A stretch of DNA of 64,000 nucleotides from the NCBI GenBank assembly GCA_016748015.1, contig JAAOMT010000435.1, forward strand, positions 62,001 to 126,000, in the 5' to 3' direction. The position numbers and the translations under genes were made by a program. Of the stretch, positions 19,827 through 55,795 are shown one piece after another; positions within the stretch are counted from its first letter, which is position 1; every line of letters begins with the position of its first letter. The DNA is from Geosiphon pyriformis uo1 (lineage: Eukaryota; Fungi; Glomeromycota). The notes below the pieces were generated by a model. That model was given only the letters and a program-made list of their open reading frames with translations. It did not search any database and was not told the DNA's origin.

Positions 19827-20309
19827 TATTACAGGTTGGAATAACAAGCTAATAAATAGCAAAGGAGAACAGAATTGTAGGGTAATAAAAAAAATCAAAG
19901 AGAATTCAACTTCAAAAAGTAAATTAAATAAGTATGAATTCAATGTACAAGATCAGTCTTATAAAATATCTCAGTCACTATACTTTTCAAAGATAACCAG
20001 AGAATCTGAAAGTAAAGGAATAGTCCATACTGTCAACAAATGATCATGCCTGATATAATTCTATGCCTCACATTGGCACTCTTAGAATTCAATATATATT
20101 TTTCAGTTATGCTTTATTCAATAATCTTCAAATACTACAATTATACAAATCAAGAAAAAGATAAGAAATAACCAACAAGTAATCTTTTATCTCAAGATGT
20201 TTAGATACTTGAAGGTAGGAAAAGAGAAATTAGTGATAAGAGAATGATTAAAATGAAAGTTGTTATTTTATTTATTTGATTTCCTTGATTTTTACATACT
20301 TTTCTACAG

Positions 20310-21155
20310 TGTTACGAGTGATTATTTGGAGTGTTGAATCAAATAACAAACCTGTAACTTGGTGCTAAAAGTTATTCACGTTGATGTTATTAATCTGAAG
20401 ATTTTGTATCTGAAAGTTTTGGTTTGAGTTCTTTGTATAATAGACAGAGATTCAATAGTTGTTTTATCTGTAGCTTCCCAGAATTGCAATTCTGTCAATT
20501 TTTTTTTCGGCATGATAGTCAGTAATCCTCTGGTAAGTATTCTGTATCTTTTGTACGTGTCCTATCCTCTCACAGAGGTCTTTTACCAAACCATCCTTGA
20601 TGTCAGTAATCTAGCACTTTATTTAACCAATTAATGCACAACAATAAAATCAAAATAAAATAAAGAAAAGAAATAAAAGAAAATTATAAATAAGCCAAGG
20701 CAATTTTGCAAGTCAATATCCCATCAATAGCCATGATCAAGAGTTATTATTCCAGTGAGTTTAAGTATCAATTACTATCAACATGAAGTATTGATAGTGG
20801 AATTTAGGTTTGAAATACCAAATAGTTATTTATTGTGTTTGGAAGATTGTCTAGATGAAATCTAAACTTGAAGGTCTGTTTTTTTAGCTTCTAATCCTAC
20901 TGCTATATATACATAATTGAGATTCCTCAATTTTTCAATTCTTTACCACAGGAATCCTGGGATTCCTGAAATCCTGCAATTTCTTTAAGAGGAATCCTGG
21001 AATCCTGGAATTCTGTGATTTCTTGTGAGAATCTTGTAATTCCTGGAATTCTGCAATTCCTGAGAGGAATCCTGGAATTTCATATTTTACTATGTCTACT
21101 TCTGATTAGCTAATAACTATGCTAATATATATTCCCTATATTTCTATGAATAACA
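20310..21155 (-). repeat. Element B 3' LTR
   Basis: TGTTA...TAACA; PPT adjacent; matches 39245-40090. Confidence 0.92.
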
Positions 21156-21169
21156 TTATTCCCTCTTTT

Positions 21170-21798
21170 TAATATTGAGCTCCATTAAAATCTAACTCTG
21201 TTAATTCCTCTTCTTAAAGTATTTTCTGAATTTCATTTTCAAGAATTACTTGTGTTATTTGAGTTTGTAATTCATTAAATTGAGTGTTGGTAATCTTTAC
21301 TAATTGATTACTGGTAACCATATCTATTGCTTTGTTGAATAAGATTTCTGGTCGATCCTGAAATGCTTTGTGTATTTGGTATATGGCTCAGACCTGTGTG
21401 AATAAGTTGTTCTTTCCCACAAAATATTCTAATTGTTGAAGTATTCTTGTATCGAATAATCACTTTGTTTTATCCATATATAGATTCTGGATATTCACGT
21501 ATTGTTCCAAGTAAAAATAACAATAGTTTCTTGGAAATTGTTGTATCTACCAATTTCAAGTTTCTTTAGTCAACTTTTGGTATAGTGACTCTTTTGTCGA
21601 CTTTTTTATTGCTAATTTTACTTTTGTCATGATTTTGTCAATAGTATTTTCTGTTTTCTTCTGTGTTTTATGTGGTAATGTCTTTTTAGTGTCTTGATAT
21701 CGGATGATTTGTTGATTAATTGTAATTTTCATTTCTTGGTGTTGAATCAATTGAAAGAGTTGTTGTGTTAGTAAGTGGATGTTGTCTGTAATTTCCAT
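21170..21798 (-). pseudogene. Element B extra ORF3, unknown function
   Basis: MEITDNIHLLTQQL..YCYFYLEQY..AIYQIHKAF..LVKITNTQFNEL, with frameshift and stops. Confidence 0.6.
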
Positions 21799-21961
21799 TT
21801 TTCTAATATGTCTTGTCACATTTACCATGTCTTTATATATTTTTTTGATGGATTAATTAACATGTTGTTGTCAATGATGATAATTGGTTCCAGATTTCGT
21901 GGAATTTCCTTTGGTTGGACTATTATCTTTTGTATTTCTAATTATAGAATATTACTGGTGG

Positions 21962-22923
21962 TGTTACTGGAGGTTTTTGGTCTCTTTTCTTGAATGTTGT
22001 TAATGTCTGTTTGTTGTGAATTCACATTTCCAGAAAGTAGTTGGACCTCCAGTAACTGAATTTATCTTCAAATTATCTCCTATAATTTGAACTTGCTGAG
22101 CTTATGAGTGAAATAGCCAATTCCATGCCAGTTGTTTTATGTAGTTACATTGTAGTAAACATCAACTCTTTCCCAGGAATTGCTTGTCTAGAAGCTCACT
22201 AAAAATGTGTAGTTATTTTGCTGTGAAAGTCAACTCTTCTACAGGAATCTTGTCTGTAGGCTACCTAATGATTGTAATAAAAAAAGAAAAGAAAAAATAA
22301 AAAAAATGTAAAAGAAATAGGATTTTATCAAGGGAAACGTTTTTTTATCCAGGCCTGGAGTCACTAACAGTTTACTGAAATTGGTAGCTAATCAATTTCA
22401 AAACGTTAGTTGGGTTTTGAGAATTTTCCAAGTACAATAATTTAAAGAGTTTGGTTTTTTTGAATTATTTGATATTTATTTCTTTTTGTGTGTATAGAAA
22501 TGGTTCTAAGTGATAAATTTAAAGTAAGATACATTTTTTTGAAGAGAAAAGCTCTTTTTTTATACAACTTGTCATAACACTATTCTATGAACTTGAACTT
22601 TGCTATTTTCTACAATTTTGCTAAACTAAAAATACATTTCGGCAAACTACAAGTTATTTCTGTGAACTATCAATTATTTCGGCAAATTTTTACAAATTTC
22701 GGCAAACTTTTGAATGTTATATAGTTCGGAGTATTGTATGATTAATCATCGCAATTAGGTTACATTTGTGTTGTGTACAAATTGGGTTATTAATTAAATG
22801 ATAATTTCAAACATTTTGCTAATATAATAAGTGATAATTTGAAATGATAATATATGCTAATTAATGATAGGAATTATAAAATAATTTCATGCTAAATAAT
22901 ATCTCTAATTTTGTCTGGTAACA
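21962..22923 (-). repeat. Element A1 3' LTR
   Basis: TGTTA...TAACA; near-identical to 30531-31513. Confidence 0.93.
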
Positions 22924-22929
22924 TAATCT

Positions 22930-23611
22930 CTTTCTTAAGACTGAGCTCCATTGAAGTCCAAGTACTGTCTGTCATTTCCAGATAATAATCCAAAATTATT
23001 AAAGAAACTTGGTCTGAAAATTGTTGAAATTTCAGTTCTGTGAGCTTTCCAATGTATTGAATCTTCAAAGATTGAAAAATTGGGTTTTGTAGTACATTTT
23101 CACAGGTGTGGAATAGGTCATAAAGTCTAAGAACAGCTCTAAGCCTGTAGCGACTATTTGTTGATCCAGCTGTTGTCTTGAATTTGTTGTGGAGTTGTTT
23201 CTAAATAGCTTCTTTTGTGAGATTTATTGTTGTAAATTCCAGTTTCCGTTCGTAGAGTGTTTTTCCAATGTAAAAATATCTATAAATTGGAGGATATTCA
23301 GTGTTTTCCTCATTGAGACACAGTTGAAGTCTTTGTTGAATTGTAGCATTTGGTGGAATACTAATTGGAGTGAGCATTAGGTTTTCTCTTAAAGCAAGCT
23401 TTAAAAGTTCTGGCAGGTGAATTCCAAAATAACTTCTTGTGTTCTTCTTATATGGGTGATATTTTTGTGAATTTGGGGCTAAATTTATAACTACTTCTGT
23501 TTGGGTATAATTAATGTGGTTTCTAGTAACAGTAATAGATAATTCGGGTATTGTTTTTAAAGCTAACATTAGTTTTTAAGATAATTGTTGAATGTTTTGA
23601 GGAATAGTTAT
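22930..23611 (-). pseudogene. A1 extra ORF3, unknown function
   Basis: TIPQNIQQLS*KLMLALK..YRYFYIGKTL..RAVLRLYDLF..IGKLTELKFQQF; N-terminus matches A2 ORF at 53832. Confidence 0.7.
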
Positions 23612-23736
23612 TATAAGAGATTTGAAATAAAAGAAAATTATTTTTGGTGTATGGGTTTTTATGTTATTTTTTTTTTTTTGTTTTGTTTTTGGTGAGATTG
23701 TTTCTAAATTATAAGGGAATAACTAGTAAAATTAAA

Positions 23737-25122
23737 TTAAGTGTTCAGGTTGGAAGGTTGTTTAATGACAACTATTGGTTCTAAGTTTTGGGGAATATCT
23801 TCGGAATTGACTAAAAGGGAATGTGTACCAATTTGTGGAATTAATGGTTCAGGATTGTTTCTAGAATTATAGTGTTTCAAATAATTTCCATGTGCAACTT
23901 TTGCTAGGATTTTGTCATCAAGTCTTAGCTTGTATGATCCATTGCCTAGGACTTCATGGATAAAGAATAGTTCATCTCATTTATTTTCAAATTTTCCACT
24001 TCATTGTTTTTCAGCCTTGGTTTGGTGTAAAAAAACTTTATTTCCAATTTTAAATTCGTTTGTAACTGGTGGCAGTTTGTTGTCATGTCTTTCTTTTTGT
24101 TGGGCTTGTGAATTTTCAATGTGGGTGGCTGCTATTCATCATTTTCCTTCCAATGTGCTAAGCAGAGTGTAAGCTCTTTGCTGAAGCATTTCTTGGAAAT
24201 TGTTTTCATCAATTGGTTGTGCTGGGTATGTTTTCACTGTGAAACTAATTGGTAATATTGCTGTTTTTCCATAAGTTAAATCAAATGGTATGTGTTTTGT
24301 GGTATCTTGTTTTAGTGTTCTGTATGCTAGCAACACTGATGGAATAAAGATATCTCACTCTTGCTCAAAATCGGTTGAGACTTTGGCTAATGACTCACAC
24401 AATGTTCTGTTAAAATGTTCTACAAGTTCGTTTGTTTGTGGATGGTAGGGCGAAAACAGAGGTTTTTTGACATTGAATTGTTTGTAAATTTCTTGTATCA
24501 GGTTGTTCACAAAGTGTGTCCCCTGATCAGATAAAAGTTCAATTGAACATTTGTGTCTACAAATGATGTCTTCATAAATGAAATTTGCTACTGATTTCAC
24601 ATCTGCTTGTTGAATAGCTCTGGCTTCAGGCCATTTAGTAAGATAGTCTACAGCTACTGCAATATAATGGTTTTTTTGAGTGGTGATAGATAGTGGTCTG
24701 ACTAAATTGATACCAACTCAATCAAAGGGTTGTCCAACTTTAATTAGATTTAATGGTTCAGTAGGGCATGTTCCTCCTCTTCTTTGACAACTATCACAAG
24801 ATTCGACATATTCATGAATGTTTTTTCTTATTCGAGACCAAAAGTAGTATTCTAGTGTTCTTTGGGTGGTGCTATCTTTTCCAAAGTGTGTTGATGAAGG
24901 ATCTGAATGCATGTTGTATAATATGGTCTTTTTTTTTTGTTCTTGTATTAGTCTGAGTGGTTTGTTTGGATTTTTGAAATTTCAATGATAAATAATGTTG
25001 TTGTGTAGAAAATATTGTTTGGCTTGTTGTTGTAGTTGATGTTTTTCATCTAAAGACCAATCTGTTAGGATTGTTAATGTTTCCAAATATTGTTTGAGAT
25101 TGTTATAGTTTTCTGAATTCAT
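23737..25122 (-). pseudogene. A1 integrase ORF
   Basis: MNSENYNNLKQYL start; H..H..CDSC; LLSDQGTHF; QTNELVE. Confidence 0.88.
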
Positions 25123-25173
25123 TGTTTGTTGGCTTTTTTGGTTGGTTAAATTGAGTGTTGGTTTTTGTGTTTT

Positions 25174-28100
25174 CTAATTTTGTTTCATTCTGGAGAGACA
25201 GTCAACATTGGTGTAAAGTTTTCCTGGTTTGTGATGTATTATGTATCGATAGTTTGCTAGAAATTCTGTCTATTGGGTTTGTTTTGCATTCAGCTGAGTA
25301 TTTTTGTTCTGAAGCCATTTGAGTCCAATATTATCAGTGATAATATCGAATTCTTTAGGCCTGAGATAAAGGTTGAAGTGGTATAGGGCCCAAATTACGG
25401 CTGCTGTTTCTAGTTCTGTGGCAGGGTAGTTTTTCTCAGCTGGTTTTAATGTTCTGCTAGCATAAGCAATTACTCACTCATTTCCGTTGTCATCTAGTTG
25501 TAATAAGATGACACCAAAGACAGTATACAAAGCATCTGTAGCTAGTCGAAATCAGTTGCTGAAATCCGAGTAGGCAAGAATTGGAGCTGTTGTCAGTTTT
25601 TCCTTGAGAATTTCAAAAGTTTTTTGGTGTTCGGTAGTTCATTTGTATTCAACGTTTTTGGTGGTGAGCTGGTTGAGGGGTTTTGTAATTTCTGAGAATT
25701 CTTTGATAAACTTCCGATAGTAGGATGCTAATCCTATGAATCCTTTTAGTTCTGTAGTGTTTCGAGGAGTTTTGAAGTTTTTGACAACACTGATTTTTCC
25801 AGGATTTGGTTTGATTCCATCTTTACTAACAATATGTCCAAGGAAGGCCAAGCTTGTTTTTCCAAAGTAGCATTTTTTGATGTTGAGTTTTAGTCCTGCT
25901 TTTCGTAATCGTTGAAAAACTTTTCACAGGTATTTTAAGTGTAATTTCCACTTTGGATGGTGAATGCTGTTTTGGGGCAATCTTTGAGATCCATAGCAAC
26001 TTGCCAGTAACTGCTTTCTAAATCTAGTGTTGAAAAATATTTGGATTTTCCAAGGGCATCTAACATGTCATCAATCTGGAAAAGGAGGTAGGCATCTCCA
26101 ATTGTAATACTGTTGAGTTGTCAATAGTCAACACAAAATCGGATCTTTTCATTTTTCTTTTTAATTAGCACTACAGGTGAAGCCCAAGGACTTATGGAGG
26201 GTTGGATGAGCCTATTGTTAAGCATTTGTTGTACTTCTTCTCAGATGAAATGGTGGCTTTCTGAAGCAACTCAATATGCTTGTTGTCTTCTTGGTTTGGC
26301 ATCTCCTGTATAAATTTGGTGTTGGACCAAATCAGTTTTTCCTAAGTCATTGTTGTTTTCAGTGAAAATATCGGCAAATTCTGCAATTAGCTTTTTGAGC
26401 TGGGTCTGTTGTTGTGATTCAAGTTGTCCCATGTTGATTCAAAATAGTTTTTCTGTGACAACATGGTAGTTTTCGGAGCTGGAGTTTGGGTTGATTTTTG
26501 GTAGTGAATGTCCAATAATTTCAGAGAAATTGGGGACTGTTTAGGGTAATTCTTGTTGAAATATATTACTGTGAATAACTCCAATTTCTAAATTATTTAA
26601 TAAAATTATGGGGTAATTATTGGGGTTGTAAAAAGTAACTCGGACTTTCTTTGTTCCTTCTGGAATATAAATGTTTGGGATTGAGATATTATGTTCCAAG
26701 CAGACTTGTTCATTGGACTCAAAAATTTGTTGTGTGGTTGTTGGCTTTGGGCAGGTGTAGATTTCTGGATGTTTTCCAAAGGGTGAGATGGTAATTGGTT
26801 GTGGAAGTCTAAGAATCTGGTGGGATTCATTCTGTGTGTTAAGAGCTATATTAACTGGAACTGTGAATTGTCCAGTTGAACCAAAACCTTGGGTTCCTCT
26901 ATCGCTTTTTCCTAATTGTTCTCTTTGATTGATTAGTTACAAACCTGAAATGTTGATTAGGGGTAGGTAAATAGCTTGGGCAATTTTTTCAGCATGTTTG
27001 ATCTTGAATGGTTTGTTAATTTCATTTTGAAACATTACTGTAATGTCTCCAGTATATCCAGCATCAATTATTCCTCCTCTGACATTGATTCTTTTGCTTG
27101 CCAGAGAGGACTGAAAGGTGATTTGAACCATTGCTCCTGGTGGAATTTCGAGTGCAATTTTGAAGTTGATTTTTGTGAAAGATTTGGGTTTGAGAACAAG
27201 AGTATCCTTGCCTAGATATTTTAGGTCATATCTAGCATCAATTTTATGTGCTTTTTCAGGTTTTATTCCTTGTTCATTGTTGTTGAAGTATTTAAGTTGT
27301 AAGACAGACTGATTTTCGATAAGGTAGATAGGTGTTGTTTCAATTTCTTCTATTGCTTCAGGTTCTTCAAATTCAATTTTGTTCTCATCATTTTCGCTGG
27401 GCAAGGGGATATTAAGAGCATAGCATTCAGGACACCACTGTTCATCACAAAGCATAATGCATTCTTCACATAGCCTAATGTTCATTTGCTCTAATTATTG
27501 AATTTGAGCTTCTTGGGTTGAGTAGATGTGACTTGCAATTTGGTGGTAGACTTCTACTTTATCTTTGTAATCGAATCCAGCTAATTCTATGGTGTATTCA
27601 ATGTATTCTGCTTCCTTCATTTGAACATCTTCTTTGGTAGCTCTATTAATTAATGCCATTGCTAGGTCAAAAATCATCTCAGCATCATGAGGGTAGTGAT
27701 AAAGTTTGTTGAGAGCATTGTTGTATGCTGCATTAAAGGGTGTTCCTCTTTTTACTTTTTCTGAAATTGATAAAGCATATTGGCAGGTCTGATTGCAGAC
27801 TCCTCCTCTTATGGCTACATCAATCTAATTGCATTCTTCCGGTAGCATATCTCCACAAGTCAAACAAAGAGTGTTGTCCCATTTTCCATTCCTTTTTATT
27901 AGATGGCCCCATCATTCTCTGTGACAAGCCTTGCAGTAATAACAAGTATGATTTTCATATTCTTCTTCAGGTGAAATGTAGACTCCCATTAACAATAGTT
28001 TCTTGTGGCAGTCCTTATATTTAAGAGGAATATAGGGGCGTTGTTTCCTTGGTTTGGGTTTTGAGTAAAGAATATTCCATCCAGAAGTTTCGAATTCAGA

Positions 28101-30484
28101 GTGTGGGGTAAAATGTTCTTGTTCTGTTTCATCAGCCCAGTTGGACGTTGATCCAAGAGCCATAAATGTTTCAATGAAGGGTTTTTCTTCTTCTGGTTTG
28201 AATTCAAAAGCCAGAGCTTTTTTAGAGCATTTGTTGAATGTACCACAAGTGGCAGGTACCCAGACATGTTGTCCTTGGTAAGAGATTGTTAACTTTTGTG
28301 TTTTCTAATTCAGATTAGCATTGGCTTTTTGAAGCCAATCATTTCTGATGAGAGCTTGGTACTGGGGTGCGTCCATTACAAGAACTTTGATTGGAATGGT
28401 AATTTCATCAAAAGTGAACAGAAAATTGTCAATTTCTTCTACTGGGGTCTTTTTCATGCCATTGGCAGTGATGATTACTGTTTGAGCTGGTCGGTTGACA
28501 TTTCTTTTCAACTGTTGCATTAACTGGTAGGTGATAATGCTTTCGGCGGATCCACTGTCTAGGATCAAGTGAATTGTTTTTTCTTCAACTTCTGCTTCAG
28601 TGTACATAGCCATGATTGCTTTTTGTTCATTGGCGGCTGCATTGCTAAGCAGGAATGGTGACTCATTTGCTTCAAACTCAAAAGGAAATATATCTGAAAG
28701 GTTAGCGTTTTCAGCAATTCTGGCTGGTGGGATTGTGGTGGAAGTATAGGAAGGGTTTTGTTGTTGTATTGCAGCTCTACCTTCCAAGGATGCAGTATGG
28801 TGAAAATCCTGTTCTTCTGGCATTGTTAAATAACTGGGTTGAGTGTGGTAGTGGTTGAGTCTTGGTTGAATGGAATTTTAGGGAACTAATTGGTTGTTTG
28901 AACTGATTTTATTGTTGTTTACTTGGTACTGGTTTTGTGGTGTGAATTGATTTTGTGTAATCAGTCTTAAAGCAGATACTTGATAATGTTGTGTGGGTGG
29001 TTGTTGGTATTGCTGTTGAATTGGCTGTGGAGCAGGCTGATAATAGTTATTTTGGTATTGGAGTCTTGGTAAATAGTAAGCTGGTGGTGGTAGTTGATAA
29101 TAAGATTGCTGTGGTAAAGGGTAATGTTAATTACTTCTATTTTGTTGGTCTCGTTGTAGCTTTCTGCAATCTCTTTTCCAGTGGTCAGAAATTTCACAGT
29201 AATGGCAATTCTAAGACTGGTTATTGGAAAGTAGTGCAAAGTTATTTTGATTTCGTCTTTGGAGTGGTTGATATCTTTGGAGTTGCTGTTGTTGTTGATT
29301 GGTGAAATAGTTTTCAATCTTCTTTGTGAGTTGGTCAATTTTTTCCTCAGCTGCTGAGCTGGTTTTTCCAATTGCCAAATTTACAAGTTTTGTGCGATTG
29401 GCCTCTTCCATGGCCATTTCATATCTTTTTGCATGCTGTATGGCAGAGTTTAAATCTTCTGGCACATGTGGGTGAACCTTTTTAATTAGTTTATCTTTTA
29501 GACCAGTGATAAATTGATCCAAGATTNNNNNNNNNNNNNNNNNNNNNNNNNNNNNNNNNNNNNNNNNNNNNNNNNNNNNNNNNNNNNNNNNNNNNNNNNN
29601 NNNNNNNNNNNNNNNNNNNNNNNNNNNNNNNNNNNNNNNNNNNNNNNNNNNNNNNNNNNNNNNNNNNNNNNNNNNNNNNNNNNNNNNNNNNNNNNNNNNN
29701 NNNNNNNNNNNNNNNNNNNNNNNNNNNNNNNNNNNNNNNNNNNNNNNNNNNNNNNNNNNNNNNNNNNNNNNNNNNNTATTGATTCTTCTTCAGATATTTC
29801 AGGTTTGTTTTCTTTGTTTGCTGCTGTCTCAGAGTGTTCACTTTGATTTTCAGCTAGAAAGTCAAGGAGATTGGAACTAGTTTGAAGAGGTTCTTGTTGT
29901 CTGATGGGACTTCTGAGTGATGTAAAATCTTCTGGTCTTGCAAATCAATTCAAGAGTGAATTAGGCATTTGTGCTTGTGCAAGTGAAGCTGGAAAAGGTG
30001 TGATAGTAAGTGGAAGTTTTGAACTGGTTCCTTGTTTAGGTGTTTGTAAATGTTTGGCAGTTGTTTTTGGTAGTATTGGAGTATTTGGTGTGGTTTTTGA
30101 GTATTGCTTTAATTTGTTTTTGCCTTTGTTGTTTGTTTCTGTTTCCGATTCAAAATCAATAGAGTATTGAGACTGCACTAGATATGTTTCTTCACAGTAT
30201 TTAATAATGTTAAAATTAAGTTTGTGAAAGTAAGTGGCAAGTGTTTCGCTATTAAGGTCTTCAGTTCCCAACTGTGAATAGTGTGCTAAATTATTGTAAA
30301 GATTGCTTTTAACTTCTGAGATATTGTAATTTCCAAAAAGATAATTGTTGATGTAGTTTTCAATGTATTGGTATACTGATTTCTTGACAACTTCAATTCC
30401 GTCTGAAATGTTGAATCTTTGCTTGCAGTGGGTGTAAATTGATTGGTAATACTCTAGAGTTATTGCGTCTGGTGTGGTCGTCAC
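25174..30484 (-). pseudogene. A1 Gag-PR-Cys-rich-dUTPase-RT-RNaseH polyprotein (RT core deleted; includes an N gap)
   Basis: LILDSGS; GIIDAGYTGDI; KIAQAI; FIGLASYYRKFI; colinear with A2 and A3. Confidence 0.9.
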
Positions 30485-30530
30485 TTTGAATTTTGTTGTT
30501 GCTGTGTTATTTCCGTGAGAGAGTACCAAA

Positions 30531-31513
30531 TGTTACCAGAGGTTTTTGGTCTCTTTTCTTGAATGTTGTTAATGTCTGTTTGTTGTGAATTCACGTTTTC
30601 AGAAAGTAGTTGGACCTCCAGTAATTGAATTTATCTTCAAATTATCTCTTATAATTTGAACTTGCTGGGCTTATGAGTGGAATAGCCAATTCCATGCCAG
30701 TTGCTTTATGTAATTACATTGTAGTAAATGTCAACTCTTTCCCAGGAATTGCTTGTCTGGAAGCTCACTAAAAATGTGTAGTTACTTTGCTGTAAAAGTC
30801 AACTCTTCTACAGGAATCTTGTCTGTAGACTACCCTAATGATTGTAATAAGAAAAGAAAAGAAAAAAGAAAAGAAATGTAAAAGAAATAGGATTTTATCA
30901 AGGGAAACGTTTTTCTATTCAGGCTTGGAGTCACTAACAGTTTACTGAAATTGGTAACTAATCAATTTTAAAATGTTAGTTGGGTTTTGAGGATTTTCCA
31001 AATGCAATAATTTAAAGAGTTTGGTTTTTTCGAATTATTTGATATTTATTTCTTTTTGTGTGTGTAGGAATGGTTCTAAGTGATAAATCTAAAGTAAAAT
31101 ACATTTTCTTGAAAAGAGAAGCTCTTTTTTTATACAACTTATTGTATCACTATTCTATGAACTTGAACTTTGCTATTTTCTATAATTTTGCTGAACTAAA
31201 GATACATTTCAGCAAACTACAAGTTATTTCTGCAAACTATTAGATATTTCAATGAACTATCAATTATTTTGGCGAATTTCTACAAATTTCGGTGAACTTT
31301 TGAATGTTACATAGTTCAAAGTATTGCATGATTGATCATTGCAATTTTGTTACATTTGTGTTGTGTACAAATTGGGTTATTAATTAAATAATAATTTCAG
31401 ACATTTTGCTAATATAATAAGTAATAATTTGAAATGATAATATATGCTAATTAATGATAGGAATTATAAGATAATTTCATGCTAAATAATATCTCTAATT
31501 TCATCTGATAACA
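30531..31513 (-). repeat. Element A1 5' LTR
   Basis: Adjacent PBS TTTGGTACTCTC. Confidence 0.93.
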
Positions 31514-32791
31514 GTGGATAGTGATGTGATGTTGTGATATAATTTCAGTCAATCTCTATGTGCTGCTTTGGTTAAGATTTTGTTATCCAGTCTTAATTTG
31601 TAAGCTTCATTCCCTAGAATTTCTTCTATGTGAAATAGTCCATCCCATTTGGGGTTGAATTTTCCACTCCATTGTTTTTCCACTTTGGTATGATATAAGA
31701 GTATTTTGTTTTCAATCTTGAATTCAACTGGTTTGTCTGGTAGTTAATTATCATGTCTTTCTTTTTATTTCTCTTGTGACTTTTGTATGTTATCAGCTGC
31801 TCTTTTTCATTTGTTTTCCAATGTTTTCATTAAGTCATATGTTCTTCTTAACAATGTTTCTTGAAAATTCTCTTCTGTTATTGGTTCAGTTGGATATGTG
31901 TTAACCTTTATCTCAATTGGTAATGTTGCTGTTCTACCATATATTAATTCAAATGGTATTGCTTGTGTGGTGTCTTGCTTCATTGTCCAATAAGCAAATA
32001 ATACTGATGGTATGAACAAATCCCATTTGTCCTGGTTTTCTTGGCTGAGTTTTGCTATTGCTTCACACAATGTTCTATTAAATCTTTTAACTAATTCATT
32101 GGTTTGTAAATGATATGGTGATGATAGTGGTCTCTTAATTCCGAATCTTTGGCTTAGTTCTGCTAATGTTCTATTCACAAAATGAGTTCCTTGGTCTGAT
32201 AATAGTTTTTTTGGACATCCATGTTAACAAATCAGATCTTAATGGACAAATTTGGCAACAGATTCTGCATCCGCTCTTTGAATTGCTTTTGCTTCTGGCC
32301 ATTTAGTAAGATAGTCCATAGCTACTGCAATATATTTGTTGCCTCTGTTGATAATTGTCAATGATCCGATTAAATTAATTCCAATGTGGTCAAATGGTTG
32401 TCCTACTTTGATTGGTCTCAATGGTTTGTTGAGTCTTGTTCCTCCTTTTCTTTGACAAGCATCACAATTTTGCACATATTGGATGATGTTTGGATATATT
32501 GATGGCCCAATAGTATCTCTTTCTGGTTCTTTCCATGGTTGCTTCTTTATGGAAATATTCTGCAGTTGAATCTGAGTACATGTTAAACAGTATTGTCTCT
32601 TTTTCTGATTCTGTAATTACTCTGGTTGGTTGATCTGAATCTTTTCTATTTTTCTGATAAAGTATATTTTGGTGAGTAATAAAATATTTGGATTGTTGTT
32701 TGATCCTCTTTTGTTCTGGTTGAGATAATTTCTCCTTGAACTGTTGAGTATCTATATAATATTGAAGTTGTTGATATTTTTGTGTGTTCAT
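31514..32791 (-). pseudogene. Element B integrase ORF; C-terminal tail continues at 21961-21822 beyond A1
   Basis: MNTQKYQQLQYY start; CDACQR; DYLTKWPEA; tail EIPRNLEPIIII matches the A2 integrase end. Confidence 0.88.
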
Positions 32792-32857
32792 CTTTTGTTA
32801 TATTTTCGTGAGTATTGTTCAGGTTTTGTTATATTTTTTTTTTGGGTTGAAATGTTC

Positions 32858-35800
32858 TTAGATTTGTCTCATTTGTGACAATCATTGGCATTTTCATTGT
32901 CTTTTCTCTTTTTATAATGTATAGTATAAGTATATGGTGCAAGTGCCATTTTCTATCTTGACTGTCTTCTGTCTCCAAATTCTTGTTTTTGGAGTGATGT
33001 CAATCCTTTGTGATCTGTGTACACCTCAAACTTTTGGCTCAAGTATTCTTTCTATTTTATAACTGCCCAATAGATTGCTAAATGTTCTAATTCTGGTATT
33101 CCATAGTTCTTTTTGACTGAAGTCAAACCTTGACTGGCATATGCTACTGGATGTTCTCTTTCATCTGGTCCTCTCTGAGATAGTACTGCTCCCAATGCTT
33201 GACCTGATGCATCAGTGGTAATAATGAATGGTTTACTATGATCTGGATAGATCAATACTGGAGCTTAAATAAGCTTTCTTCTTAAGATGTCAAATGCTTT
33301 TTGCTGGGTTTCAGTCTATTCATACTTTGCATTTTTGGTTTGAAGATCATTGAGTGGTTGTGCTATCTTTGAAAAGTTTTTTATGAAGTGTCTATAATAG
33401 CTCATGAATCCCAAGAATGATTTTAGCTCAGTTATGTTGATTGGTATTGGAAAGTTCTTTACTATCTCTATTTTCTCTGGATCTGTTTTTATGCCGTCTT
33501 TGCTAACTATGTGTCCCAAGAATTTTAGTTCTGTTTTGCCAAAAAAACACTTTATTGCATTTAATTTTAATCCTATTTGTCATAGTCTTTCGAACAATTG
33601 TTGGAGATGATGTAGATGATCATCAAATGTTTTTGAGAACACATTGGTGTTATCCAAGTATACAACTACTGATTTCCATAATAAGCCAGTATACACAATT
33701 TCCATTAGCTGTTGGAATATAGCTGGAGCATTGGTTAAGCTAAATGACATAACTTCAAATTCAAAGTTTCCCTCTCTTATGGTAAATGCCGTTTTTTCTT
33801 TGTCGGCTGGATCCATGGCTACTTGTCAGTAACCACTATCCAAGCCTAATATTGAGAACCATTTGTTTTTACTAAAAGTGTCGAATAGTTCTTGTATCTG
33901 TGGAGTTGGATAGCTGTCTCCACAAGTTACACCATTGAGTTTCCTGTAGCCTACACAAAATTGGATTTTTCCATTCTTCTTATGGACGAGTACTACTGGT
34001 AATGACCATGGGCTTATTGATGGCTGAATTAACCCATTGTCAAGTATTTGGTTGATCTCTTAATAGATAATTTCATGGCTGGCTGGTGGTATCCTGTATG
34101 CTTGCTGTTTGATTGGCATTGCATCTCCAGTCTTGATCTGATGCTGGATAATATCAGTTCTGCCAAATTCATTTTTACTGGTAAAGATGTCATTGAAATT
34201 ATTAAGTAACATCTTTAGTTGCATCTGTTGAAGTGGGTCTAGATTTCCCATGTTTATCTGTTCCAATTGTTCTGGCTGTAACAGATAACATTCATTTCGT
34301 CCGTAGATGGTTTATGATGTAATGTCCACATATTCACAAAGCTGTGGAAAATCTGGAATGTTGCTTGGTGCTTGATCTTCAATTTCTGTGGTTAAATATC
34401 TGAGAGTGGTTCCTTCTGGTATCTCTACAACATTTCTGGTGTTATTGTAGATGGGAATTTTGATATGGTTATGGCTCTTGGCTGGTATGTGTAGATTGAT
34501 AAGTCCAATTTCTCTTGATTCACAAAAGATTGCTTCTGCTTCAAAAATCTGTTCTTGCTCCTTCTCTCTCCTTTCTATTGCTAATATGTATTGGCTATAT
34601 GGTGGAATGGAAATTGTTTGACCAGTTGAGATAATTTTTTCTTGGCCAATAATTTTTTCCTCTACTATATTAACTAGTACATCTATTCTACCTGTGGATC
34701 TGAATCCCTGTATTTTTCTTGCTGTTATCCCTAGTTCTTTTCTGTTTTCCACTGATACTAATTGAGCTACTTTAACCAGAGGCAGGAAGATTGCTTGTGC
34801 TATCTTTTTGTTTGGCTCTATAATATAGGCTTTTTCTGAGTTATTTTGTAGTATGGTGATGATATTTCCTATATATCCCATATTAATTATTCCTCTTTTT
34901 ATATTTATCCCTCTTTTTGCTAGACTACTCCTAAATGCTAATTGAACCATTATTGTTGCCAGAATTTCCAGTGCTATTTTCAAATCAATACAGATACATG
35001 AATGTGGTTCCAATTTGATGGCATCTTTTTCTGGATACCTCAGATCAAATCCAGTATCAGTATCATGCATGCGTTCTGGCATAATCCCTTTATTATTATC
35101 ACTGAACCATTTAAGTTTCTGTTTCTTGGTAAGGTCAGGAAGTGCAATATATTGTTCATAGTTTGGATCGGTGTTTAAATCTAAGTTGGAATCATTGTCA
35201 TTGTTCTTGCCATATTGGATGGAGCTGGAACTGGTGTTTTCATCATCATTGTTGTCAGAGTTTGAATTGGGATTAAAAATCGATTCCGATTCTGATGCAC
35301 AGCTACTGATTGGTTTCTTTTCCTCTGGGATTGTATAGATCATACATGGTGGTGGATTGTAAATGAGGTTACACTCATTACAATATTGGAAGTCACATGG
35401 AATCAAACAGTGGTCACATAGTCAAGTGTTTATTTTTTCCAACTGTTGCTCTTGTTCTTTTTGAGTAGGTACCAACCATTGATAGTGCTCATGAAATTCT
35501 TCCAAATCATCCTCAATGTTGTCAAAGATATCAAAAGTTTGAATGTATTTGGGTTCAGGAAGAGATAAAGAATTGTTTTTTATTTTCAGTAATTTGCTGG
35601 TTGTTGTGTCTTTTGCTTTCGCATATGCCATTCTCCAAAGTTTATGTTCATTGTGAAGATATTCTTTCAATCATCGTAGTGCTTTTTTTCATGCATCATT
35701 GATTGGTGTTCCCTTACATACCCAGTTGTTTATCAAGATGGTGTACTGACATGTCTTGTCATACATTCCTCCCTGCCCAGAAATGTCATTTCACATTTCT

Positions 35801-38800
35801 TTGTCAAACAAGATAGTTTCACATGCAAGACATGGTTGATTGTCCCACTTTCCTTGTTGTTTTGGTTATCCAAAGTGCTCTATGATACATGCTCGGCAGT
35901 AGAATTTGGTGGTCATTAAATATTCTTTATCGTCACTACAGCATGCGCCCATTGATGACAATTTCTTGCTGCAATCAACACATATCAGCTTTGGTCAACG
36001 ATAATTAGTTGGTGGTGATGGATAAGTGTGTGAGTTATGAGTAGTGGTGTCAGTGAGTATTGTTTCTTCTTCCTTTTCTTTTCCCTTTCCTTTATTGCTT
36101 TCTTTGCTTTCTTTCCATTTCCAGCTTGATGTCAGTTTATCATTATTGGTCCAAGTCAGGTTATCTGTTTCTCAGGTAAGTTTTGCTCTTTGTTTTCCTT
36201 CTCCATTGTCATTGTCGTCCCAGGAAAGTATTGGCGGCAGTTTGTTTTGGTTGACATCAGCCCATAATACTTGATACACTTTCCACGTTGGTTTGTTTTC
36301 TTCCTCCTCAAATTTGATAAGTGGTGTTGTTGTCCTGACATTGCTGGGTTTGAAATGGTCACATATTGCTGGAACTCGTATGTATTAGCTATTTTGGCTG
36401 AGTTAGAGTTTCTGGGTGGTCTAGTCAAGCATTGTATTGGTTTTAGATAACCAATTGTTGCCAATAAATGCTTGATACTGAGTGGCTTCCATTACCAGAA
36501 CTTTAATGGGTATTGTGATGCCATTGACTTTGATGGGGAAGTCATCTATTTTGCCAATTAGAGTTTTGGTAGCCTCATCAGCAGTGATAATTCTTACACT
36601 GGCAGCGCGATCAACTCGGCAACCTAATTGGTCCATGAGTTGTCTTGTGATGATACTGCCAGCTGATCCACTATCTAGAATCAGTTTGATGGGGTGACCA
36701 TTGACTTTTGCATTAGTGTATATGGTGGTGATGGGTTTTTCCTTGAGTGCTGCTCCACTGAACAAAGGTGGGTTGATGGTTTCTTCTAATTTGAAAAAAA
36801 AGATGGCTGCGAGAGATTCATTTTCGGTGACCATTGCTGGTAAAATATTGTTGGTGAGTGTTGTTTGGGGTGAGTTGGATTCTGAGTTGTTGGTGGTGGC
36901 ATCTTCTGAGATAACCAGGAGACTTAAATAGTTCTGGGAATTCAGGTTTTGGGTAAAACCAGTACCCGGATTCTGCTAATGAGATCCTGATTGTTGGTGG
37001 GAAGAGCTGGAAATTGGTTGATGTACAACCATTGCTGATCTCTAGTTTTGGGTGATCCTCAATCTTGGGTTCCCTGATGTCATTTGAGCTGGGTTTGCTG
37101 GTAATGTTTGAATGATAGGTGTTTGATAGATTGCTGGTGGCTGTGGTTGATATATTACTTGTGGCTGTGCCTGATAAATTGCTTGTAGCTGTGGTTAATA
37201 AACTGGAGTTTGATAAACTGGTGGTTGATAAATTGGTTGGTGCATCATAGGCAGGTAAGTGGATTGGTATTGGTCTTGATTCGGGTGATGGTTTGAAGTC
37301 TGGAACTGGCAATCGGGTTTTCTATATTGATTTTCCAATTGTGAATTGTTATAAGTATGGCAGTTGGCTCTGATGTGCCCTTGTTTACCACAGTTGTGGT
37401 AGATGCGCGTCTCTGGCTGCCATGACTGATTGAATGACGATAATAGACATGATTGATTTTGGAAACAATTCACGTTTCTCTGATTGTTATGCCATTGAAA
37501 AGATTAATAAATTGTGCAATTGTCAGCTAAGTATCTCTCTAATTTCTGATTAATTGAATCACTAAATTGCTTCAATTTGGAATCCAATTCAGATGATCCA
37601 TTTATTGTTAGATTCAGAGCTTGAGCATGATTAGCTTTTAGTTCAACTGCTTCAAAATCCTTGGTGTAAGTGACTGCAGTTGGAAGGTCCACTGGGTGCA
37701 TTGGATGTACTCATTGTAGGATGCTACTGTGCAATCTTCTAATAAATTGATTTAAAATCTGTGGTGTTGTAAAATAGTCAGCTTGGATGGCTTGTATTTG
37801 GCATAGATTTCTATGAAAGCATCCCAAGTAGGTAGTGACTGCTTCAGTATCTCTTTGTCTGATAGTTGTAAAGGTGTTGGCTAATTTGTTGATACTATTA
37901 TTGTTGCTAAAGTACTGCAAGAATTCAGTTTTGAATTCATTAAAATTTTGGGGTTTGACAGTGAGGCTTTGATACCATGCATCAGCAGTATCCTGGAAAA
38001 AATAATAAATCACTTGCATCACTCTAGCATCATCCCAATTATTGGTTGTAATAGCTTTGGCTATGTTATTTAACCAGACTTGGGTGTTGTCTTTTTCATC
38101 ATTGAATTTGTCGAGTTTTGTGATGGGTGTATAAGTCATTTGTTGTTGCTGTGGTGGTGGAAGTTGTTGTTGTTGTTAAGACAATACTGGTAGTGGTTGT
38201 TGATTTTGTTGGTTCTGTGGTTGGATGGGCTGGCCAATTGGTTCAACAGATGGTTAATCGATGATGATAACTGAAGATAAGTGTTAATTAATTACTTTGG
38301 GATTTAGATTGTTCTGATTTGGTGAAGTTTGAATATTTGGAGTGTTATTTTCTTGATTGTCTAAATTTGGCTAGGTTTGAAAGTTCGGAGTTTCAATTTT
38401 GGGGTTTTTTTGATTTGGATTTCTCAGAGTTTGATTGTTTGGGGTTTCAAATTCTGGGTTTTCAGGGATTGGGTTTTGGTAAGTAAACTCTTGATCCTCA
38501 GATTTTTCTTCCTTTTTTTCTTGTTCCTCTTCTTCAGATAATTCCCACAGAGTAGCAGTGCCGAAATTTGGTGGTGATAGTGGTGATTGAAGTCCTAATG
38601 GTGTTGGCGATCATGATTTAAATCCTTCAAAATATGCACCATATGGTCCTAATAACTTCTTTTTTCTCTGTTTACTTTAGAACAAAAATCTTCCAAAGGC
38701 TGCTGTCATGTTTGATGTGGATGCACTGGTAGATGTAATATTAATGGCACTTCCGGGTATATAGTGGTATGATGGATTAGTTGGGGACTCAATTCTTGTT

Positions 38801-39183
38801 TTCTTCCAAGTAGGTGGTTGTATTTTTTGAGGTATTACTGCTGGTGTTTGTAGTTTTTCTTTGCCTTTACTTGTGTAAGTAATTGGGTATCTTTGTTGTA
38901 TGTGGTGTTCAATTTCTTTGTTAATCTCAGTAATGATGGATGCAAAATTATGATTTGTGGGTAGGCTGGTGTTTTGAATTAATTTGTTGTAAAAAGTTTC
39001 TCTCACTAATTCAATATTTATGGATGTTCTCAACAGATAAACAATCCTTTCATTAATGTAGAAATTGAAAGCTGATTCTGCTGATATGTGATTATGGGTT
39101 AATTCCAAATGTTAACAGTAATGTTGAAATAAGAATTTTGCAAATCCTAAATGGTTTGCTCCGATGTTTTCTGATTCTGCCAC
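32858..39183 (-). pseudogene. Element B Gag-PR-Cys-rich-dUTPase-RT-RNaseH polyprotein
   Basis: NCGKQGHIRANC; LILDSGSAG; DTGFDL..KIAQAI..QGFRSTG; KTAF; YLDN; TTDAS. Confidence 0.9.
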
Positions 39184-39244
39184 TTTTGGATGGGGTTGTT
39201 GATGCTGGTTCTCTGTAGGATTATACCTCACAAGGAGCACCAAA

Positions 39245-40090
39245 TGTTATGAGTGATTATTTGGGATGTTGAATTAAATAACAAATCTGTAACTTGGTGC
39301 TAAAAGTTATTTGTGTTGATGTTATTAATCTGAAGGTTTTGTATCTGAAGATTTCAGTTTGAGTTCTTTGTATAATGGACAGAGATTCAATAGTTGTTTT
39401 ATTTGTAACTTCCCAGAATTGCAATTCTGTTAATTCTTTTCTCGGCGTGATAGCCAGCAATCCTCTGGTAAGTATTCTGTATCTTCTGTACATGTTCTAC
39501 TCTTTCACAGAGGTCTTTTACCAGGCAATCCTTGACGTCAGTAATCTAGTGCTTTATTCAACCAATTAGTGCACAACAATAAAATCAAAATAAAATAAAG
39601 AAAAGAAATAAAAGAAAATCATAAATAAGCCAAGGCAATTTTGCAAGTCAGTATCCTGTCAATAGCCGTGATCAAGAACTATTGTTCCAGTGGGTTTAAG
39701 TATTAATTACTATTAACATAGAGTGTTGATAGTGGAATTTAGGTTTGAAATACCAAATAGTTATTTATTGTGTTTGGAAGGTTGTCTAGATAAAATCTAA
39801 ACTTGAAGGTCTGTCTTTTTAGCTTCTAATCCTACTGCTATATATACATAATTGAAATTTCTCAATTCCTTAATTCTTCACCACAGGAATTCTGGGATTC
39901 CTGGAATCCTGCAATTTCTTTGAAAGGAATCTTGGAATTCTGGAATCCTGCAATTCTTTGTGAGAATCCTGTAATTCCTGGAATTCTGCAATTTCTAAGA
40001 GGAATCCTGGAATTCCACATTTTACTATGTCTACTTCTAATTGGCTAATAACTATGCTAATATATATTCTCTATATTTCTATGAGTAACA
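39245..40090 (-). repeat. Element B 5' LTR
   Basis: Followed on the minus strand by TTTGGTGCTCCTTGTGAGG (PBS). Confidence 0.92.
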
Positions 40091-40279
40091 ACAGCTAAGA
40101 GATTCATTTCTTATATAACTGTCAAAAATAGTCAATGATCAGGTTAATAACTAGGTCAATGATCAGATCATTGATTAGGTCAATGATCACTTTTTAAAAA
40201 TAGAGTGACTAATTTATGTAACATTAGTGGCTAATATATGTAATAATTAATAAGAAATATAAGTTTCAATTATAATATT

Positions 40280-40903
40280 ATTCTCTTCAAAAAGATTGAG
40301 CTCTGGCAAAATTAAGCTATTCATAGTGTAATTTATTTAAAAAGTTTTATCTAATTCAAAGCTAACTAGTTTGTTGAAGTCTTTTGTGGATAGGGTATAT
40401 AATACTTGAAATAAAATGAGTTTTGTATCCAAGAGGCCAAATCTTTGTATTAGAGTTTTGGCTCTTTTAGCAATAGTTAAAACTCTTGAAACATTTAATC
40501 ATATAATGCCCAAAATTTCTGTCTGTATCTCTGAAGTTGTTTTCTTTATGAGTTTCATATCCTCTATGATTTCTCCAAGATGACTATAGAGTTCTAATTG
40601 CTTTTTATATGACAAGTTTTTGTCTATGGGTAAGATTTCTTGAAGTGTTTTTCCAATTGTGCTGGAAGGTAAAAGTATAGCTGCTGTTATATTTTCTAAC
40701 AGATATTTATCTATTTTGTTACCATTTTTTTCTCTTCTGGTAGTGGTTTTTTTTGGTCTAATAACAGTATGTGTTCCACTGTTATCAGTTATGGTGGTTT
40801 GTTTTCCAATGGTTAGGGTAGCATTTGAATAATTTTTAATCTAATGTTCATAGAGAGTATAGAAGATGTTTTGAATGTTTTGATCCAAAAAATAATTATT
40901 CAT
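40280..40903 (-). pseudogene. Element C extra ORF3, unknown function
   Basis: Nearly open sense-strand frame DQNIQNIF..LYSHLGEII..IAKRAKTL..LYTLSTKDFNKL between IN and PPT. Confidence 0.6.
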
Positions 40904-40944
40904 GTTGATTGAAGATATCTCTGTTTTGGGAATGGTGCATTTAT

Positions 40945-42258
40945 TTATACTTGATTTTTGATGATTAATTGAGTCGGTATTACCACAACAAGCAACCAAT
41001 CAGGTCGTTTATAATATTTTTTAAGTTATGTACCATAAACAAGACAATTATTGAAGATTGTTCTAGATTAATCTTAAAGAATATAAGAATCATTATTCAA
41101 AACTTTGTTGACTATAAAGGGTCTTTTTCATCAGCTAGAGAATTTATCACCATAAACATTGTTTTTGTCTGAGTAGTATTCCAATACTAAGTCACCAACA
41201 CTTAAAGAAAGTGTTTTATAGGTTTTTTTTTTCTTAAGCTTTTCTTGAAACTGTTTTATCTTTTTAAAAACAATTATTTGTGCTTCTACCAAAGAATCAA
41301 GAATGATATCAAGTCTTCTTTGCAAAATGTCTTTGTAATTTCCTATTGTAATCTCTTTAAAGGGTATTGTTTCAATGTTAGTTTCTATTAATAGTATTGT
41401 CATGTGTTCATAGAGCAGATAAAAAGGTTCATAACTTGTTATATCATAATTTACAGTTCTATAAGCAAACAAAGCTGAAGGCAGTACTTTGTCTCATAAG
41501 TTTGTTTTTTCACTGGTTTTGGTTAAGGTTTTACATAATATTCTATTAAAACATTCTACTAGACCATTTGTTTGGGAGTAATAAGAGAAGAAAAGTTTAT
41601 AATGTATTCCTATTTTTCTACAAAATTCTTCAACCAGTATACTGAAAAAAGCTCTTTTTTTATCAAATAAAAGTTCTTTGGGGCAACCATAATGACAAAT
41701 GATATCTTTATAAATAAAATTGGCTATAAAGACTGCTGTTTGGTCAGGAGTGGCTCTTGCTTTTACCCACTTTATAAGATAGTCAGTAGTTGTGATAATG
41801 TATCTGTTGCTATTAGGAGTTATTATTAAAGGTCCAACAACATCTATACCAATTCTGTTAAATGGTTGACCAATAGAGATTTGATGAATATCTTTTTTGC
41901 AATTGGATTTGCCTTTTTTTTGGCAAATATCACAGATTTTGATGTATTCAGCAATGTCTTTTCCCAAGGTAGACCAATAATAACGAGTTAAAGTTTTCTG
42001 AATTATTTTTGTTTTTCCAAAATGTCCAGCTAATGAGTCAGTATATATGTTGTATATTACAATTTCTCTTTCTTCAAATTTAATGATTCTTTGGAGGCAA
42101 TCAGGATCTTTTTTGTTTCTTTTGTATAATTGGTTCTGGTGGATTAAATAAAAATTTGATTATTTATGCAAATGTTTTCTTTGCTGTTGAGTGTATTCTG
42201 GTGGGTATTGTCATTTACTCAAAAATTCTATTAAGACAGAGTAGTTGTCCAAGTCCAT
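40945..42258 (-). pseudogene. Element C integrase ORF
   Basis: MDLDNYSVL start; CDICQK; IGIDVVGPL; QTNGLVE. Confidence 0.85.
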
Positions 42259-42322
42259 TATCGTGTTTGTTTATAAAGAAGTTATTAATAATTAAGTTGG
42301 TTTAGTTTAAGAGATTATAATA

Positions 42323-45300: not shown

Positions 45301-45421
45301 GATTCTCTTTGACTGCTTGGGCTAAGGGTTTTAATAACCAGGCAAGATTAGCTATAAGTTTATCTATTAATTGTTTATTTGGGTTTTGAGTTTGGGCAAT
45401 AAAAGAAGTAGCAGCCATTTG
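42323..45421 (-). pseudogene. Element C gag C-terminus, protease, RT and RNase H
   Basis: CYHCGLTGYFSRNC; LILNSEL (decayed DSG); KTAF..YEFTVMPFGLTNAP; YLDD; LHTDAS; NADALSRLTIQ*. Confidence 0.9.
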
Positions 45422-46627
45422 GNNNNNNNNNNNNNNNNNNNNNNNNNNNNNNNNNNNNNNNNNNNNNNNNNNNNNNNNNNNNNNNNNNNNNNNNNNNNNN
45501 NNNNNNNNNNNNNNNNNNNNNNNNNNNNNNNNNNNNNNNNNNNNNNNNNNNNNNNNNNNNNNNNNNNNNNNNNNNNNNNNNNNNNNNNNNNNNNNNNNNN
45601 NNNNNNNNNNNNNNNNNNNNNNNNNNNNNNNNNNNNNNNNNNNNNNNNNNNNNNNNNNNNNNNNNNNNNNNNNNNNNNNNNNNNNNNNNNNNNNNNNNNN
45701 NNNNNNNNNNNNNNNNNNNNNNNNNNNNNNNNNNNNNNNNNNNNNNNNNNNNNNNNNNNNNNNNNNNNNNNNNNNNNNNNNNNNNNNNNNNNNNNNNNNN
45801 NNNNNNNNNNNNNNNNNNNNNNNNNNNNNNNTTCAAAAATTCGCCGAAATTATGAATAGTTCACCCAAATTAATCAATAGTTCAGCGAAATAACTTGTAG
45901 TTCATCAAAATGTATCTTTAGTTTGCTGAAATTTGAGCAAAGAGAAAAAGTGCAAGTTCATAGACTAGTACTACAACAAGTTGTATAAAAGAAGAGCTTT
46001 TCTCTTCTGGAAAATATATCTTATTTTAGATTTATTACTTAGAACCATTCTTATACACACAAAAAGAAATAAATATCAAATAATTTGAAAAACCAAGTTT
46101 TTTAATTATTGCACTTGGAAAATCCCCAAAACCCAACTAACATTTCGAAATTGATTAGCTACCAATTTCAGTAAACTGTTAGCGACTCCAGGCCTGGATA
46201 GAAAACGTTTCTCTTGACAGAATTCTATTTTTTTTACATTTCTTTTATTTTTTTTTTCTTTTCTTATTACAATCATTAGGATAGCCTACAGACAAGATTT
46301 CTGTAAAAGAGTTGACTTTCACAGCAAAGTAACTACATATTTTTAGTAAGCTTCCAAATGAGCAATTTCTGGGAAAGAGTTGACATTTACTACAACGTAA
46401 CTACATAAAGTAACTGGCAAGAAATTGGCCATTCCACTTATAAGCCCAGCAGTTCAAATTATAAAAGATAATTTGAAAATAAATTCAGTTATTGGAGGTT
46501 TAACTACTTCCTAAAAACGTGAATTCACAGCAAATCAACATTACCAACATTTAAAAAAAGAGACCAAAAACCTCTGGTAACATTTGGTGCTCTTCCACAG
46601 AAATAACACAGCAACAACAAATTCAAA

Positions 46628-52246: not shown

Positions 52247-52303
52247 TACCAACAACAATTCCACCACAACTTTCCAACTTACTAACAAAATAACCAAACA
52301 AGA

Positions 52304-55744: not shown

Positions 55745-55795
55745 ACAATAGAAACAAAGTGAAATTTGACAACCTCACAGAGAGCACCACTTTTA

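Follow-up and report, generated by a model that had tools for sequence, protein, structure and literature searches.

ORF3, an accessory gene between integrase and the polypurine tract of Ty3/gypsy retrotransposons in Geosiphon pyriformis

The window analysed here, a stretch of 64 000 nucleotides from Geosiphon pyriformis, is AT-rich eukaryotic DNA that contains, from about 19.8 kb onward, a nest of LTR retrotransposons (Table 1). Self-BLAST and reading of the junctions place A2 and B inside C, and A1 inside B; a third copy of family A starts at 57.7 kb and continues past the window edge. A, B and C are Ty3/gypsy LTR retrotransposons (Metaviridae), as given by their order of gag, protease, RT, RNase H and integrase, and the hallmarks of the class are present: LTRs of the form TG...CA, a primer-binding site (PBS), a polypurine tract (PPT) and a target-site duplication. 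Self-BLAST finds no similarity among the LTRs of the three families, in agreement with an earlier sequence-only reading of this DNA that had called them unrelated. Families A and B carry a dUTPase between protease and RT, with a Cys-rich motif before it; none was seen in C, unlike A and B. A PBS starting TGGTGCTC, which may resemble the 3' terminus of tRNA-Ile, is common to the three families, with one mismatch in A1, and each LTR family has its own short tandem array in U3, with units of 38, 12 and 20 nt. The CpG observed/expected ratio is 0.06-0.25 in the elements (0.21 in the related contig L001, described below) as against 0.96 in flanking host DNA, and CpG is not depleted in a host cullin gene lying about 1.3 kb off the nest end.

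Table 1. Positions of elements, genes and signals in the window; entries for L001 and L005 refer to those contigs
Feature	Position	Strand	Remarks
Element A1	21962..31513	-	LTRs 30531-31513 and 21962-22923, 6.7% divergence; 4-bp target duplication; order gag-PR-dUTPase-RT-RH / IN / ORF3; inserted at the end of the B integrase
Element A2	45832..54999	+	inside C gag
Element B	20310..40090	-	LTRs 39245-40090 and 20310-21155, 9.3% divergence; 4-bp target duplication; order gag-PR-dUTPase-RT-RH / IN / ORF3; inserted in the C 3' LTR
Element C	19830..56545 (approximate ends)	-	outermost; interrupted in gag (by A2) and in the 3' LTR (by B); 4-bp target duplication
A1 ORF3	22892..23611	-	239 codons; ATG decayed to ATA
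A2 ORF3	53832..53886	+	first 18 codons, then N gap from 53887; second A subfamily
B ORF3	21169..21798	-	209 codons; ends just short of PPT
C ORF3	40247..40903	-	218 codons; reaches into 3' LTR
A1 integrase	23737..25121	-	own ATG 51 nt past RNase H stop; several stops
A2 integrase	52304..53689	+	open 461-codon ORF, own ATG; H2C2, rve, weak Tf2-like SH3 match
RH-IN spacer, A1	25122-25172		51 nt
RH-IN spacer, A2	52247-52303		57 nt
RH-IN spacer, B	~32790-32860		66 nt
RH-IN spacer, C	~42258-42322		64 nt
RH-IN spacer, L001	775-798		24 nt
RH-IN spacer, L005			153 nt
GAGCTC motif and PPT before 3' LTR	22923..22948	-	common to A, B, C, L001 and L003
U3 tandem arrays	20950-21079, 39885-40016, 56328-56457, 57907-58004		putative transactivator binding sites
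dUTPase (A and B)	26940-27494, 34315-35421, 49389-50435		
PBS	~30512-30530, 39225-39244, 55778-55794		
Host cullin gene	16974-18497	-	

Between integrase and the PPT these elements carry a further sense ORF with its own start codon, ORF3, which is a real accessory gene; its position, strand and motifs are as the sequence-only reading gave them (sense, in the env slot, in all families). That reading had also described them as ORFs of about 200-230 codons, but in the window the frames are not open: those of A1, B and C contain 2, 5 and 3 stops, and most of A2 ORF3 falls within a gap. The remaining five frames have 12-20 stops each, and at this composition the probability of 230 codons without a stop arising by chance is about 4e-8. 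Intact full-length ORF3 proteins (209-239 aa) were found among more than 400 database matches. The A search gave 192 matches from 272 candidates, and among the 120 matches listed 23 are of 239 aa and 26 of 221 aa; the C search gave 127 from 317, with 20 of 218 aa among the 120 listed; the B search gave 107 from 140, mostly fragments, with P0156 a full-length protein of 209 aa. These counts of open copies are not the share of all copies, because gene callers favour open ones. All of the close matches listed are hypothetical proteins of Geosiphon pyriformis, with up to 91% identity for A. One gene model, P0093, joins an A-type to an E-type ORF3, which fits an element-in-element insertion, and many other Geosiphon gene models are similar chimeras of element pieces.

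The position at which ORF3 ends varies: it lies inside the LTR in A, C and L001 and ahead of the PPT in B and L003, and in A1 the frame crosses the PPT and continues for about 10 codons inside the 3' LTR. A conserved C-terminal tail was considered as protein evidence and rejected, since it is the PPT DNA signal, which A and B translate in different frames.

In every element inspected (A1, A2, B, C, L001 and L005) the RNase H frame closes with a stop, and the integrase begins anew from an ATG of its own, as a separate ORF. Five of the intervening spacers (A1, A2, B, C and L001) are short, at 24-66 nt, free of ATG and of predicted structure, contain 0-6% G and have an A at -3; five of all six keep the reading frame, and four contain additional in-frame stops. 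A splice joining RNase H to integrase was rejected, the spacers having no GT and no common acceptor. Pfam gave no chromodomain hit in the open A2 integrase (to E 0.1) or in that of L003 (to E 1), and by the presence of a chromodomain at the integrase C-terminus these elements would not be classed as chromoviruses. The spacers measured between integrase and ORF3 are 45-316 nt long and mostly pyrimidine-rich close to the ATG; AG is absent from the L003 spacer, and no acceptor position is common to the others. An env-style splice into this spacer is therefore disfavoured, and ORF3 is probably expressed from an internal promoter or by reinitiation. A literature search by title and abstract opening found no paper describing the split integrase layout. 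The RNase H of L003 runs on (2-1146) into a long acidic, Cys/His-rich extension without a Pfam family before the separate integrase, which is annotated as a Bacteroidetes transposase, and extra coding sequence also precedes the integrase in L002. Contigs L002-L005 are fungal-type LTR retrotransposon contigs within bacterial genome records, including an assembly of Candidatus Glomeribacter gigasporarum, and are probably eukaryotic contamination.

A relationship between the ORFs of families with unrelated LTRs, proposed earlier from spaced motifs, was borne out for A and B by profile-profile comparison (hhalign; probability 87%, E 3.8e-6, 181 columns, near full length). An A profile run against 1.84 billion representative proteins returned 35, with neither B itself nor C among them; the most distant six were P0152/P0153 and P0154/P0155, representing two Geosiphon variants, and the unnamed metagenomic proteins P0150 and P0151, at E-values of 4e-15 to 6e-4. 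Identity between ORF3 groups is 17-34%, and leave-one-out z is 33-47 for each of B, D, E and P0151 against the rest. We judge from these comparisons that the A and B ORF3 proteins are homologous, and likewise the two further Geosiphon variants and the two metagenomic proteins. As judged from the protein sequences, the tails of P0150 and P0152-P0155 fit the PPT-side signal. P0151 was traced to contig L001, which carries in succession RT-RNase H, a stop, an integrase starting at its own ATG, 316 nt of spacer, ORF3, a PPT and the start of an LTR; this ORF3 is open, 230 aa long and 28% identical to A1, and the neighbouring integrase is 60% identical to that of A2. The arrangement RT-RNase H, integrase, ORF3, PPT and LTR thus occurs beyond a single assembly.

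Across 40 loci, L001 alone scored with the ORF3 HMM. The more distant L003, from a bacterial bin and with an integrase 44% identical, has an open 146-aa ORF in the ORF3 slot with a similar motif order and position, yet the match is non-significant (hhalign E 0.06, z 1.3); this ORF does not appear to belong securely to the family and remains a lead. Another lead comes from searching the Atlas with the P0151 core: the best two rows are clusters of hypothetical proteins with mostly Mucoromycota members (scores 0.95 and 0.94, with 178 and 173 shared features), and the family may be wider than the present alignment. The same search with full-length P0004 was weak, at best 0.90; scans of viral contigs with ORF3, integrase and the PPT pattern found no relevant locus, and a first genome-contig scan gave no matches. 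Trees of integrase and ORF3, built from the sequences of this analysis without named reference elements, are mostly unresolved, and we therefore make no claim of co-evolution.

The suggestion that all three families share ORF3 holds for A and B and more weakly for C, through a shuffle test. Semi-global alignment of four C copies gave shuffle z values of 3.8, 3.9, 4.7 and 1.8, with a reversed control at -1.3, and a low-confidence model of the C protein has the same order of a helix, two strands, a linker and five helices. The spaced motifs named earlier align in register between A and B, and the first two also align in C, where the last two are ambiguous. C ORF3 is thus probably, if weakly, homologous to those of A and B. 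It would be rather unlikely for C to have acquired its ORF independently and to resemble A and B through composition and position alone, although profile-profile comparison of C with A and B is not significant (hhalign E 0.12 and 0.29), nor is BLAST of B against C, and the family HMM gives C at most 8 bits, a score equalled by at least 11 of 1987 shuffles. On the side of homology, the integrase of C has the longest branch of all the close ones; a separate origin would bear on C membership alone and is compatible with any proposed function. An ORF3 family in a tricistronic fungal Ty3 clade is secure for A, B and their relatives, and probable for C.

Several comparisons, all within family A, bear on selection. 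Between its two ORF3 subfamilies, a and b, identity is 64% (81 pairs, range 60-68%), and the 18 residues at the start of A2 ORF3 resemble subfamily b. For the A1 and A2 integrases, dS is 0.77 and dN 0.15 over 322 codons. Neutral simulation gave about 30% protein identity and several added stops at d=0.7, a value close to that dS and assuming that A2 is in subfamily b and that integrase and ORF3 have not recombined, and 40% at d=0.5. The 17 codons comparable between A1 and A2 ORF3, a very small sample, give pS 0.56 and pN 0.12. Contigs (set X1) aligned to A1 ORF3 reveal 33 variable sites at a share of at least 25%, with third-position changes at 14 of 24 copy-shared sites (p 0.010) as against 1 of 9 sites private to A1 (Fisher p 0.018); the 90% cut dividing shared from private was set after viewing the table, and a 70% cut gives 12/19 (p 0.007). 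Selection while lineages were active, and then neutral decay of the A1 copy, would be expected to leave this pattern. As judged from these sequence comparisons, family A ORF3 shows purifying selection; for B and C the corresponding observation is of open frames. Cross-family dN/dS from forced codon alignments (0.43-0.74) is uninformative, off-frame controls giving 0.55-0.63. The proposal of an old, non-Env accessory gene kept by selection can therefore be retained for A, B and the outside relatives, with purifying selection measured in A.

The ORF3 protein appears to be small, soluble, mostly helical and not an Env. Hydropathy plots of 8 proteins show no TM segment or N-terminal hydrophobic signal (highest 19-residue value 0.27-1.29), confirming what had been noted by eye, and the proteins have 0-3 cysteines. 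The missing hydrophobic segment and few cysteines argue against both an Env and a FAST-like fusogen: an Env of errantivirus or retrovirus type is ruled out by the lack of a signal peptide and transmembrane anchor, and an sORF2/FAST fusogen by the lack of both a single TM segment and an N-myristoylation motif. AlphaFold2, with a 14-row alignment, predicts for A (mean pLDDT 66, core 80-90) an N-terminal helix and beta hairpin at low confidence, then a basic linker without order and, at about residues 80-200, a helical core modelled with confidence; the C model has a pLDDT of 45. The basic linker is found in A, B, C, P0150 and P0151, and net charge is not consistently basic (pI 5.4-9.4). Conserved positions comprise an aromatic-x-hydrophobic-Gly motif, an Asn, an Arg-hydrophobic-aromatic-x-x-Phe helix and a late Ile/Leu-Thr motif, and no catalytic residue set is evident among them. 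Pfam searches to E 1 with 9 proteins gave nothing beyond noise, and Pfam, PHROGs and PDB-sequence searches gave no match naming any family or DNA-binding domain. Fold searches with the A model were likewise without a clear match (Foldseek best E 0.32 in PDB and 0.08 in BFVD; VIA-align best Z 5.3, to generic helical bundles), and for the low-confidence C model the highest score was Z 7.7, covering 67 residues of a three-helix fragment. A match to a characterised accessory family, which would have undercut the original proposal, was not seen in profile searches, and the fold searches do not show that the predicted models represent a new fold. A homodimer prediction, in which the alignment was not used, scored 0.00 and speaks neither for nor against a dimer.

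An extra ORF between pol and the 3' LTR is a known kind of gene, and ORF3 is an undescribed, unnamed family within that kind. A survey of fungal Ty3/gypsy elements (PMC2864245; Novikova et al. 2010) reports, in its available text, elements bearing a dUTPase between protease and RT, as here, and draws for some an 'additional ORF' of unknown function; it covers ascomycetes, basidiomycetes and one chytrid, with no Glomeromycotina, and the text available assigns the added ORF to no sequence family and describes Pol as a single polyprotein. The plant elements Retand/TRP28, Grande and RIRE2, also non-chromoviruses, have a conserved accessory ORF between pol and the 3' LTR whose function is given as unknown and which has been proposed to be nuclear, DNA-binding and regulatory; in the accessible part of that account the plant ORFs are antisense and have TRP28, whereas ORF3 has the sense orientation, adjoins or overlaps the PPT and matches no Pfam family (PMC11963269). 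Errantivirus Env occupies the same position, and sORF2 lies downstream of pol in some elements, but ORF3 lacks the TM segment, signal and MGxxxS/T motif of these proteins, as far as they are described in the text available, and has few cysteines (bioRxiv 10.1101/2025.03.14.642691). Captured ORFs between pol and the 3' LTR are also described for rotifer elements in the portion consulted of PMC5408684. No paper describing ORF3 was found in a search by title and abstract opening, with Repbase, subscription papers and Geosiphon genome papers outside its scope, and ORF3 is not described in the available parts of PMC3248453, PMC6431247 and PMC11952901.

With membrane roles excluded by these data, a small trans-acting factor remains. 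We tentatively favour a nuclear trans-activator or anti-silencing factor over a reinitiation factor like the caulimovirus TAV, because of the CpG loss, the silencing reported in Rhizophagus, the basic linker and the last-cistron position. ORF3 would be made, as the last cistron, from a short subgenomic RNA begun in or before the pyrimidine-rich spacer between integrase and ORF3; its basic linker would direct it to the nucleus or to nucleic acid, and it would act in trans on element DNA to turn or keep expression on in a host that methylates repeats. Such a role would be that of Tas/Bel1 in foamy viruses or VANC in VANDAL transposons, which have transactivator and anti-silencing roles. For Rhizophagus, mCG and small RNAs on Gypsy elements are described in the available text of PMC8647823. 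The absence of a DNA-binding match in Pfam, PHROGs and PDB-sequence searches and the variable net charge count against this reading.

The TAV/P6-like alternative, in which ORF3 would be a translational transactivator for reinitiation at the integrase cistron after gag-pol, seems unlikely to us even though it would account for the split integrase. TAV is about twice as long as ORF3, and no sequence match between them was found (no Pfam hit to E 1, 9 proteins). The separate integrase start in all six elements, five with short, ATG-free and G-poor spacers, is consistent with reinitiation, as is the joint presence of a split integrase and an ORF in the ORF3 slot in 5/5 element types whose 3' end could be read (A, B, C, L001 and L003). 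This co-occurrence lacks, however, a comparison with split integrases without ORF3 or fused integrases with it, and with 5/6 spacers in frame read-through or ancestry may explain the layout. To our knowledge, termination-reinitiation in caliciviruses and non-LTR retrotransposons needs no viral transactivator. The text available of PMC5902531 presents that process as a separate mechanism shown in those elements, and describes TAV/P6 as an ORF that comes last, after the RT gene, is made from its own subgenomic RNA and is needed for downstream ORFs; the element is a reverse-transcribing one, and the genes upstream of TAV/P6 form separate cistrons. We are more doubtful still of an extended version, in which a clade of Mucoromycota Ty3 elements would have become tricistronic (gag-pol, integrase and ORF3) like a plant pararetrovirus, and ORF3 would be a fungal reinitiation factor, evolved independently and with a new fold, through which integrase is made once translation of pol ends.

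It is also doubtful that ORF3 is an RNA-binding particle or counter-defence protein, serving in packaging, in movement within the coenocytic hypha or in suppression of RNA silencing. The basic linker fits such a role, Gypsy elements are a main small-RNA source in Rhizophagus according to the accessible text of PMC8647823, and Atlas leads include a closterovirus coat protein cluster (0.86 and 0.93, the latter with 158/256 features) and a phage translation repressor (0.91), but these rows fall below the 170 or more features usual for same-family matches and the Pfam closterovirus coat model (PF01785) gave no hit. It is improbable that ORF3 partners integrase and, standing in for a chromodomain, anchors the pre-integration complex to chromatin: the two genes adjoin, the integrase ends with a weak SH3-like match and no chromodomain hit, and the nesting of elements suggests targeting to repeat-rich DNA, but nesting is expected by chance where LTR elements make up 41% of the genome, the figure for Geosiphon in the available text of PMC11952901, and Pfam offers no reader-domain match.

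For Geosiphon, hundreds of annotated 'hypothetical proteins' are this single retrotransposon gene, for which a definite place in the elements can now be given. Should ORF3 act as an anti-silencing factor or transactivator, the reading that we favour, it could explain the expansion of these elements within a methylating host; were it instead a driver of reinitiation, fungi would have their own equivalent of TAV, which might also serve in expressing polycistronic constructs.
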